Virus record (IMG/VR): IMGVR_UViG_2609459825_000010
Reading direction: 5' to 3' (one strand)
Source of the DNA: a virus
Taxonomy: Duplodnaviria > Heunggongvirae > Uroviricota > Caudoviricetes
Length of the DNA: 10,589 bases
The number at the start of each line of letters is the position of its first letter. Within the stretch, counting starts at the first letter, position 1. Under the pieces are notes generated by a model. It worked only from the letters and a program-made list of their open reading frames with translations. It was not told the DNA's origin and did not search any database. The position numbers were made by a program, and so were the translations under genes. Shown here one piece after another: positions 7,256 to 7,505 of this stretch.

Positions 7256-7331
7256 GGCCCTTTAGCTCAGTGGTGAGAGCGAGCGACTCATAATCGCCAG
7301 GTCGCTGGTTCAAATCCAGCAAGGGCCACCA
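7256..7331 (+). tRNA. tRNA with CAU anticodon (Ile2/lysidine-type, ileX/ileZ-like; Met not excluded), 76 nt with encoded CCA
   Basis: Cloverleaf built by hand: acceptor GGCCCTT/AAGGGCC, D-arm GCTC/GAGC, anticodon loop CTCATAA, T-arm GCTGG-TTCAAAT-CCAGC, ACCA end. Close to E. coli ileX as recalled. Confidence 0.9.
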
Positions 7332-7338
7332 TCACATA

Positions 7339-7412
7339 CCGCCATTAGCTCATCAGGAAAGAGCGCCAGCCTTCGAAGCTGGTTGCGCGGAGTTCGGATC
7401 CCCGAAGGCGGT
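7339..7412 (+). tRNA. tRNA-like gene, anticodon UCG (Arg-like); possibly degenerate
   Basis: Cloverleaf: acceptor CCGCCAT/AAGGCGG (one A-A mismatch), D-arm GCTC/GAGC, anticodon arm CCAGC-CTTCGAA-GCTGG, T-arm CGGAG-TTCGGAT-CCCCG (one A-C mismatch, unusual T-loop). No encoded CCA. Confidence 0.5.
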
Positions 7413-7428
7413 TCATTATCTGTATCCT

Positions 7429-7505
7429 GCGTTGTTAGCTCAGCCGGACAGAGCAATTGCCTTCTAAGCAATCGGTCACTGGTTCGAATCCAGTACAACG
7501 CGCCA
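7429..7505 (+). tRNA. tRNA-Arg (anticodon UCU; reads rare AGA/AGG), 77 nt with encoded CCA
   Basis: Cloverleaf: acceptor GCGTTGT/ACAACGC, D-arm GCTC/GAGC, anticodon arm ATTGC-CTTCTAA-GCAAT, T-arm ACTGG-TTCGAAT-CCAGT, GCCA end. Resembles argU/argO-type tRNAs. Confidence 0.9.

Follow-up and report, generated by a model that had tools for sequence, protein, structure and literature searches.

The ileZ-argN-argO tRNA cassette of a lambdoid prophage segment and the probable decay of its middle gene

The cassette and its outer genes

We analysed a 10,589-nucleotide stretch of viral DNA (IMG/VR record IMGVR_UViG_2609459825_000010; "the window" refers to this whole stretch), a mosaic lambdoid prophage segment that is covered to more than 70% in none of the complete E. 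coli genomes. It carries a cluster of three tRNA genes, the ileZ-argN-argO cassette of lambdoid E. coli prophages (including those encoding Shiga toxin, Stx), which lies downstream of the gene for the late antiterminator Q. This cassette is known, textbook prophage biology in its ordinary location, and the present analysis confirms and sharpens that picture, above all for the middle gene, argN, whose allele in the window is probably in an early state of decay. The elements of the cassette are as follows.

7217..7245, plus strand: promoter-like site, sigma-70-like TTGATT-17 nt-TATTAT, ending 10 nt before ileZ (consensus scan, 9/12 matches)
7256..7331, plus strand: ileZ, tRNA with anticodon CAU, Ile2 (lysidine) type, CCA encoded (ARAGORN; Rfam, 72.5 bits)
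7332..7338, plus strand: ileZ-argN spacer, 7 nt, TCACATA; nucleotide diversity (π) 0.13 among homologues
7339..7415, plus strand: argN allele, tRNA-Arg(UCG)-like gene of the "window-like" allele lineage (Rfam, 44.7 bits)
7416..7428, plus strand: argN-argO spacer, π 0.18-0.20
7429..7505, plus strand: argO, tRNA-Arg(UCU), CCA encoded (ARAGORN; Rfam, 70.1 bits)
7520..7545, plus strand: terminator-like hairpin (7520-7537) plus T-run, GGCTCGC-TTTT-GCGGGCC followed by TTTTTTGT (terminator scan)

Both ARAGORN and the Rfam model RF00005 found the three genes, all on the plus strand, at the positions given in the original prediction, which had been made from the letters alone. ARAGORN called tRNA-Met(cat) at 7256-7331, tRNA-Arg(tcg) at 7338-7414 and tRNA-Arg(tct) at 7429-7505, while the Rfam matches scored 72.5 bits (7256-7328), 44.7 bits (7339-7412, E=4.7e-7) and 70.1 bits (7429-7502), the gathering score being 29; a chance match can thus be dismissed for all three. 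According to both programs, the anticodons read CAU, UCG and UCU in this order along one strand; the coordinates and genes of the prediction thus hold, and the middle anticodon, which it had described as "UCG-like", is exactly UCG.

The likeness to the ileZ-argN-argO genes of Stx phages, which the original prediction had put forward, was borne out by database comparison. The 361-bp cassette region matched 289 phage records, mostly Stx2-converting phages, at approximately 93% identity, and several of these records are annotated ileZ/argN/argO. Among 5,426 complete E. coli genomes, 3,061 matched some part of the same region, and 1,412 had a single place that covered 80% or more of it. The top E. 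coli prophage match to the cluster was 99.7% identical (CP145714), and there PGAP labels the genes tRNA-Ile, tRNA-Arg and tRNA-Arg, with no pseudogene flag. A search of the literature for ileZ/argN/argO and phage tRNA function in Stx phages returned nothing specific on argN; mentions were limited to "two tRNA-Arg and one tRNA-Met".

The outer two genes had been predicted to be canonical, and indeed both have intact cloverleaves and an encoded CCA, although ileZ has one non-standard pair, A27·C43, where K-12 ileX has G27·U43. The ileZ sequence is identical to ileX at 68/76 positions, with a compensatory change at pair 6-67, and its homologues are annotated tRNA-Ile/ileZ in RefSeq (PGAP) and GenBank. 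Judging from its similarity to ileX rather than to Met tRNAs, ileZ is of the tRNA-Ile2 type, and its anticodon is presumably lysidine-modified. Likewise, argO has the anticodon loop and A20 in common with K-12 argU, and the stem differences between the two are compensatory.

The promoter-like site upstream of ileZ was called with a consensus match of 9/12, which alone is no better than chance. However, a TTGnnn-17-TATTAT motif ends approximately 9-10 nt before ileZ in 27 of the 27 distinct upstream contexts sampled (60 nt upstream, L001-L120 clusters). In some loci, this motif directly adjoins a tR'-type terminator hairpin nearly identical to the one downstream of Q in the window. The cassette would thus form a small self-contained transcription unit, in which a conserved sigma-70-like promoter precedes the three tRNAs, spaced at 7 and 16 nt, and an intrinsic terminator follows them. 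Read-through from PR' upon antitermination by Q would presumably transcribe it as well. The transcript would be expected to undergo the usual processing by RNase E/P and exonucleases.

Structural defects and variation of argN

The original prediction listed four defects of the middle gene, and we recovered each of them in the sequence itself, in the Rfam alignment and in the ARAGORN drawing. In the acceptor stem, A7344 stands opposite A7406, so that pair 6-67 is an A·A mismatch, and in the T-stem, CGGAG/CCCCG, pair 52-62 is mismatched as A·C. The T-loop reads TTCGGAT, so that G58 replaces the near-universal A58, as compared with TTCGAGT or TTCAAGT in intact alleles. Lastly, the 3' end is GGCGG-T-TCA, with TCA in place of the CCA that is encoded in both neighbours and in most argN alleles; a genomically encoded 3' CCA is the rule for E. 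coli tRNA genes. In contrast to these defects, the anticodon stem (CCAGC/GCTGG) and the D-stem (GCTC/GAGC) are paired, and the anticodon loop, CTTCGAA, has 7 nt and keeps U33. The gene also carries A20 and C35, which are identity elements for arginyl-tRNA synthetase (ArgRS), but its discriminator U73 and first pair C1-G72 are both atypical for E. coli tRNA-Arg.

Measured against a canonical elongator tRNA, argN therefore lacks a fully paired 7-bp acceptor stem and 5-bp T-stem, A58 in the T-loop and an encoded CCA, but it has the 7-nt anticodon loop with U33 and the paired anticodon and D-stems, and it exceeds the covariance-model threshold (44.7 versus 29). A chance match was rejected on the grounds of the E-value of 4.7e-7 and the existence of homologues. 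The prediction named a normal software score as one result that would speak against it. The software does call the gene a tRNA, and PGAP labels a 99.7% identical copy plain tRNA-Arg, yet its Rfam score is 25-28 bits below those of its neighbours and 10-14 bits below those of intact argN alleles. For intact alleles the minimum free energy (MFE) fold is a cloverleaf, whereas that of the window allele has a UUCGG/CCGAA hairpin in place of the T-arm (z = -0.96); the MFE folds of ileZ and argO are wrong as well.

We compared argN among homologous clusters in IMG/VR prophage contigs that contain an exact 36-mer from ileZ, a sample chosen so as not to condition on argN itself. This yielded 120 loci with 100 distinct 419-nt segments, and 77 distinct clusters contain argO. 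Second and third scans of viral contigs returned mostly loci of the first and so add no independent estimate of frequencies. When one genome per species was scanned with argO as the anchor, there were only 4 matches, all in Escherichia or metagenome bins, and no distant outgroup. Across the 100 segments, ARAGORN called cat + tcg + tct in 53 and cat + tct only, with the middle DNA present yet uncalled, in 22; the remaining 25 had other layouts, for example cat-Lys(ttt)-Thr(tgt)-Gly(tcc).

In the 77 clusters, π was 0.013 for the part of ileZ outside the search anchor and 0.020 for argO, but 0.179 for argN and 0.178 for the argN-argO spacer; these values pool a few old lineages, which inflate them, and were computed without tree correction. 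The diversity of argN is thus that of the spacer and approximately nine times that of argO. The 77 clusters contain 41 argN alleles, which we sorted by structure.

Intact: 29/77 clusters (38%), all stems paired, with A58, T67, G52 and CCA
Paired, odd T-loop: 7/77 clusters, all stems paired, T-loop non-canonical
Window-like: 16/77 clusters, with A6·A67, A52·C62 and G58
Indel: 21/77 clusters (~27%), with a scrambled anticodon arm (80/81/87-nt), a 66-nt deletion, or 76-nt
Other: 4/77 clusters, with a degenerate acceptor stem or an altered anticodon loop or anticodon

An intact cloverleaf with A58 is accordingly missing in 48 of the 77, and breakdown of argN recurs among the related phages. The Rfam scores follow this order: intact alleles (for example CCGCCATTAGCTCATCGGGATAGAGCGCCAGCCTTCGAAGCTGGCTGCGCGGGGTTCAAGTCCCCGATGGCGGT; L083 type) reached 54-58 bits, the 76-nt allele 47.8 bits, and the window allele and its window-like relatives 43-45 bits. 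The argN of L002 scored 26.4 bits, under the threshold, and L080 as well as the scrambled and deleted alleles gave no match at E<=10. In all loci scored for argN, ileZ and argO held 67-73 bits. We considered whether the scrambled 80-nt alleles might be a different tRNA, and rejected this, as neither ARAGORN nor Rfam (E<=10) detects one. Some scrambled alleles (L117, L051, L125) have a poly-G tract of approximately G5, G6 or G12 in the T-arm region, which suggests slippage.

The prediction would also have been contradicted by mismatches that are conserved and compensated in functional homologues, and we found the opposite. No pair changed on both sides among the 33 full-length argN alleles, and 6-67 and 52-62 are simply unpaired in 8 of them. 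The mismatches are confined to a single lineage, and a reading of them as conserved, compensated features of a functional family was rejected on these grounds. Since all other lineages have T67, G52 and CCA, the states in the window are derived; A58 is likewise the form outside the lineage. Within the window-like lineage, π was 0.015 for argN, 0.019 for the spacer and 0.003 for argO, and the lineage has gained three more stem changes, namely one G·U pair and two mismatches. TCA replaces CCA in three window-like alleles and in the CP145714 relative, and A59 (G59>A) is private to the window. None of the 5,426 complete E. coli genomes carries the exact allele of the window (best match, 99%), while 827 of them, including UTI89 and O157:H7, have a match of 95-99%.

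The argO gene served as a positive control for the test of compensatory change. Its stem changes among the 77 clusters are of the G·U type or the compensatory C50G+G64C (6 clusters), with mismatches only in 3 singleton clusters. This double change is direct evidence of selection on argO structure. In the 6 clusters that carry it (e.g. L052, L054, L066), the T-stem change comes with A59C. Taking diversity, scores and pairing together, ileZ and argO are intact and under strong purifying selection, and appear to be functional.

Possible readings of argN

We put the probability at roughly 0.65 that argN in the window is in early decay, specifying a non-functional or poorly functional tRNA-Arg(UCG) between two functional rare-codon tRNAs. 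The original suggestion of a pseudo-tRNA or non-canonical tRNA is supported by the uncompensated mismatches of one lineage and by the spacer-like rate at which the gene evolves. On this account, argN would have descended from a genuine tRNA-Arg(UCG), and T67>A would have broken pair 6-67, G52>A pair 52-62, A58>G would have removed the T54-A58 tertiary pair and C74>T the encoded CCA, with the private G59>A besides. The decaying gene would yield little or no functional tRNA and may persist as it is wedged between two selected genes.

A number of observations weigh against such decay. The software still calls argN a tRNA (44.7 bits, E=4.7e-7), and PGAP labels near-identical copies tRNA-Arg, unflagged. 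The gene keeps an intact anticodon stem-loop and D-arm, together with U33 and A20/C35. Lack of an encoded CCA is not disqualifying, since E. coli possesses an enzyme that adds CCA, and A·C mismatches can be tolerable. Window-like alleles are widespread (827 genomes at 95-99%), and the "type" argN of a Stx2a phage scores equally low, at 43.0 bits. Positions in the acceptor and T-stem of the middle slot ("slot 2") are 2-10 times less variable than the spacers, which implies that the element is not wholly neutral. A few old lineages inflate the values of π, which lack tree correction. Finally, the MFE fold of argN is weak evidence, as MFE mispredicts ileZ and argO too.

Several of these points would be expected if argN were a functional, merely non-canonical tRNA-Arg(UCG) that is processed, has CCA added by the host nucleotidyltransferase, is aminoacylated by ArgRS and aids the decoding of CGA and CGG. 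We regard this as unlikely, though it is the strongest of the alternatives. It would account for a score above the Rfam gathering score, the ARAGORN call and the PGAP tRNA-Arg label, for the intact anticodon arm, D-arm and A20/C35, for the presence of window-like alleles in hundreds of genomes, and for the 2.5- to 2.7-fold enrichment of CGA and CGG in the window's genes (see below). True tRNA ancestry is further suggested by the existence of intact relatives and by a difference of three compensatory pairs between the Arg form and a Lys form of the same scaffold. However, the window copy has four independent structural defects, the loss of A58 included, and compensation is seen nowhere among the 33 full-length alleles. 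The window-like lineage evolves at a spacer-like rate and accumulates stem mismatches and CCA losses, and in approximately 27% of the clusters argN is scrambled or deleted with no visible cost to ileZ or argO.

The Lys form just mentioned is one of several variants found in slot 2. The slot after ileZ may hold a "tRNA-Lys(ttt)" on the acceptor/D/T scaffold of argN (L042, L005, L043, L059; also L013 and L065, where argO is next), with the anticodon arm TCAAC-CCTTTAA-GTTGA, that is, C33 for U33. The Lys and Arg forms differ by three compensatory pair changes (7-66, 27-43, 30-40), a covariation score that was reached in 0/500 shuffles, and so both descend from a tRNA under structural selection. 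The Lys form itself is weak, scoring 44 bits or going undetected by Rfam. In L181, L182, L186, L188, L189, L195 and L206, slot 2 has anticodon loops of 5-6 nt or otherwise odd ones, and an A73 discriminator; ARAGORN labels these variants Phe(aaa/gaa), Leu(taa) or "???", and intact Thr(tgt) and Gly(tcc) genes usually come next. In the argN of the Stx2a phage, pair 51-63 is an A·C mismatch and two pairs are G·U; intragenic mosaicism is suggested by the match of its 3' half to the Lys-type scaffold. Diversity in the 77 clusters is unevenly spread over slot 2 (window 7339-7415), as listed here.

5' acceptor strand: π 0.014
3' T-stem: π 0.08
3' acceptor strand: π 0.077
Discriminator and tail: π 0.045
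Anticodon arm: π 0.31
D-arm: π 0.18
Spacers, for comparison: π 0.13-0.20

The 5' acceptor strand is thus more conserved than its pairing partner.

It is conceivable, though improbable in our judgement, that slot 2 is a fast-turnover tRNA-like scaffold with changing anticodon arms (Arg-UCG, Lys-UUU with C33, 5-6-nt loops) on a comparatively conserved minihelix, the window copy being one of its states. If true, such a scaffold would fit a non-decoding role, for instance as a signal that guides processing of the two neighbouring tRNAs, or as a decoy or substitute against anticodon nucleases. The first of these roles, in which the acceptor/T minihelix would direct RNase P cleavage and 3' trimming of ileZ and argO while decoding is dispensable, also strikes us as having little chance of being right. 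It agrees with the low diversity in the minihelix and high diversity elsewhere, and with the fact that scrambled, deleted and odd-loop versions all retain CCGCCA..., the T-arm, ...GGCGG and N-CCA. But one replacement event dominates the diversity of the anticodon arm, both mismatches of the window's lineage fall within the minihelix, conservation is far higher in the 5' strand than in the 3' strand with which it pairs, contrary to selection for pairing, and ARAGORN finds clusters with ileZ alone or with other layouts.

The second role, that of a nuclease-resistant substitute or decoy tRNA countering anticodon nucleases that target host tRNA-Arg or tRNA-Lys, can be given hardly any weight. Known anticodon nucleases do attack tRNA-Lys(UUU) and tRNA-Arg, and some phage tRNAs can make good the damage; a single scaffold here bears different anticodon arms, including UCG and a UUU arm with C33 for the universal U33. 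This support is circumstantial, however: most variants show structural damage and not neat variation, the changes in the window sit in the acceptor stem and T-arm outside the anticodon loop, and many of the variant loops have 5-6 nt and are unable to decode.

Early decay of argN, which we prefer, would have practical consequences. Annotation pipelines label argN plain tRNA-Arg, though in the population data it evolves at the pace of the adjacent spacer and many copies are broken. A functional argN should not be taken for granted when "phage tRNAs" are counted, or when CGA/CGG decoding and tRNA-based anti-defence are discussed for Stx and related prophages. Moreover, with two genes frozen and one in decay over a mere 250 bp, the cassette provides a clean natural control for selection on tRNA structure.

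Codon demand, surrounding genes and related systems

We compared codon usage in the 13 open reading frames (ORFs) of the window with that in 42 K-12 core genes. The codons assigned to the outer tRNAs were strongly enriched, namely ATA 3.7-fold (p = 3e-6), AGA 6.1-fold (p = 1e-7) and AGG 14.9-fold (p = 7e-15), as compared with 2.5-fold for CGA (p = 0.0024) and 2.7-fold for CGG (p = 0.00017). Presuming that its CAU anticodon is lysidine-modified, ileZ would read AUA, and argO, with UCU, would read AGA and AGG; in these horizontally acquired prophage genes, the enrichment of all three codons is 4- to 15-fold. The pattern fits rare-codon supply, and also fits weaker selection on the UCG tRNA. Rare-codon supply is the established rationale for tRNAs located after Q in lambdoid phages (PMC3636060).

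The cassette is surrounded by the following features.

2929-3254: hok/sok-type toxin-antitoxin locus (Rfam sok, 112.4 bits at 2929-3104; 70-aa ORF at 3042-3254)
5135..5956, plus strand: late antiterminator Q (Pfam PF03589, E=4.6e-51; "antitermination protein" in a near-identical relative)
5962-5989: possible PR', TTGATT-16-TAAATT, read by eye and not called by the scan
6039..6060, plus strand: tR'-like terminator downstream of Q (hairpin 6039-6054), CCCGCCGCCTGGCGGG + T6 (terminator scan)
6183-6380, plus strand: TrmB-like small gene (annotation in the 99.7% relative)
6514-7227, plus strand: AraC-type helix-turn-helix gene (Pfam HTH_AraC/HTH_18; annotation in the 99.7% relative)
7604..10566, plus strand: cargo slot with a TerB-family gene, a DUF3927 gene, the small RNA (sRNA) STnc100 and a NanS-p-like esterase (Pfam, Rfam, annotation of the relative)
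8343-8552: STnc100 sRNA, between the TerB/DUF3927 genes and the NanS-p-like esterase (Rfam, 145.6 bits)

Upstream of the tRNAs, the order is hok/sok locus, DUF968 gene, RusA, Q, tR'-like terminator, TrmB-like gene and AraC-type gene. The position that had been proposed for the cluster, between PR'/tR' and the cargo genes, is correct, with the qualification that the TrmB-like and AraC-like genes intervene and that the cluster has its own promoter-like site and terminator. These two genes (6183-7227) resemble a regulator module that has been inserted. With a GC content of 44%, the AraC-type gene contains 5 ATA and 5 AGG codons; a promoter-like site of its own lies at 6451-6478, and terminator-like hairpins flank the gene.

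No stx gene is present in the cargo slot of the window (7604-10566). In Stx2 phages, stx2AB sits between argO and the NanS-p-like esterase, and in the relative the holin and lysozyme genes come after the NanS-p-like gene. Related loci have one or two copies of STnc100, sometimes beside the anti-sRNA AgvB (96.5 bits); in L054, a weak AsxR-like match overlaps AgvB, at 43 bits and below gathering. At the other end, the relative in CP145714 aligns only from window position 2881; its positions 1542-3552, which lie upstream of the DUF968 gene, encode a cytosine methyltransferase and a restriction enzyme of the NgoMIV family. Window positions 1-2880 hold other ORFs, with no Pfam matches. From this comparison, the region upstream of the DUF968 gene appears to be a variable cargo slot.

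The closest known system is the ileZ-argN-argO cassette of Stx2-converting and other lambdoid prophages (AP012539 and similar), which has the same three anticodons in the same order at approximately 93% nucleotide identity. In both, Q precedes the cassette and the stx / nanS-p cargo slot follows it, and in the Stx2a phage, too, the middle gene is the weak member (43.0 bits). The window differs in that stx is absent, with TerB-family and DUF3927 genes and STnc100 filling the cargo slot, and in the insertion of the TrmB-like and AraC-like genes between tR' and the tRNAs. The argN lineages differ as well: the window has A6·A67, A52·C62, G58 and TCA, while the Stx2a phage has A51·C63, two G·U pairs, A58 and CCA.

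K-12 ileX and argU are the host counterparts of ileZ and argO, which are extra copies borne by the prophage; K-12 is not known to have a UCG tRNA-Arg that would correspond to argN. Genes for tRNAs are also found downstream of gene Q in the lambdoid phages SfI, Sf6, ST64T, PS3 and P21 (PMC3636060). These phages share with the window the slot and the proposed rationale of rare-codon supply, but their tRNAs are different (Asn GUU, Thr UGU) (PMC3636060). As for the middle gene, argN resembles tRNA pseudogenes and remnants in its uncompensated stem mismatches, the loss of a conserved tertiary base and of CCA, and its spacer-like diversity. Unlike them, it is still recognisable at 44.7 bits and has an intact anticodon arm, which would place its decay at an early stage, and intact alleles coexist with it in the population.

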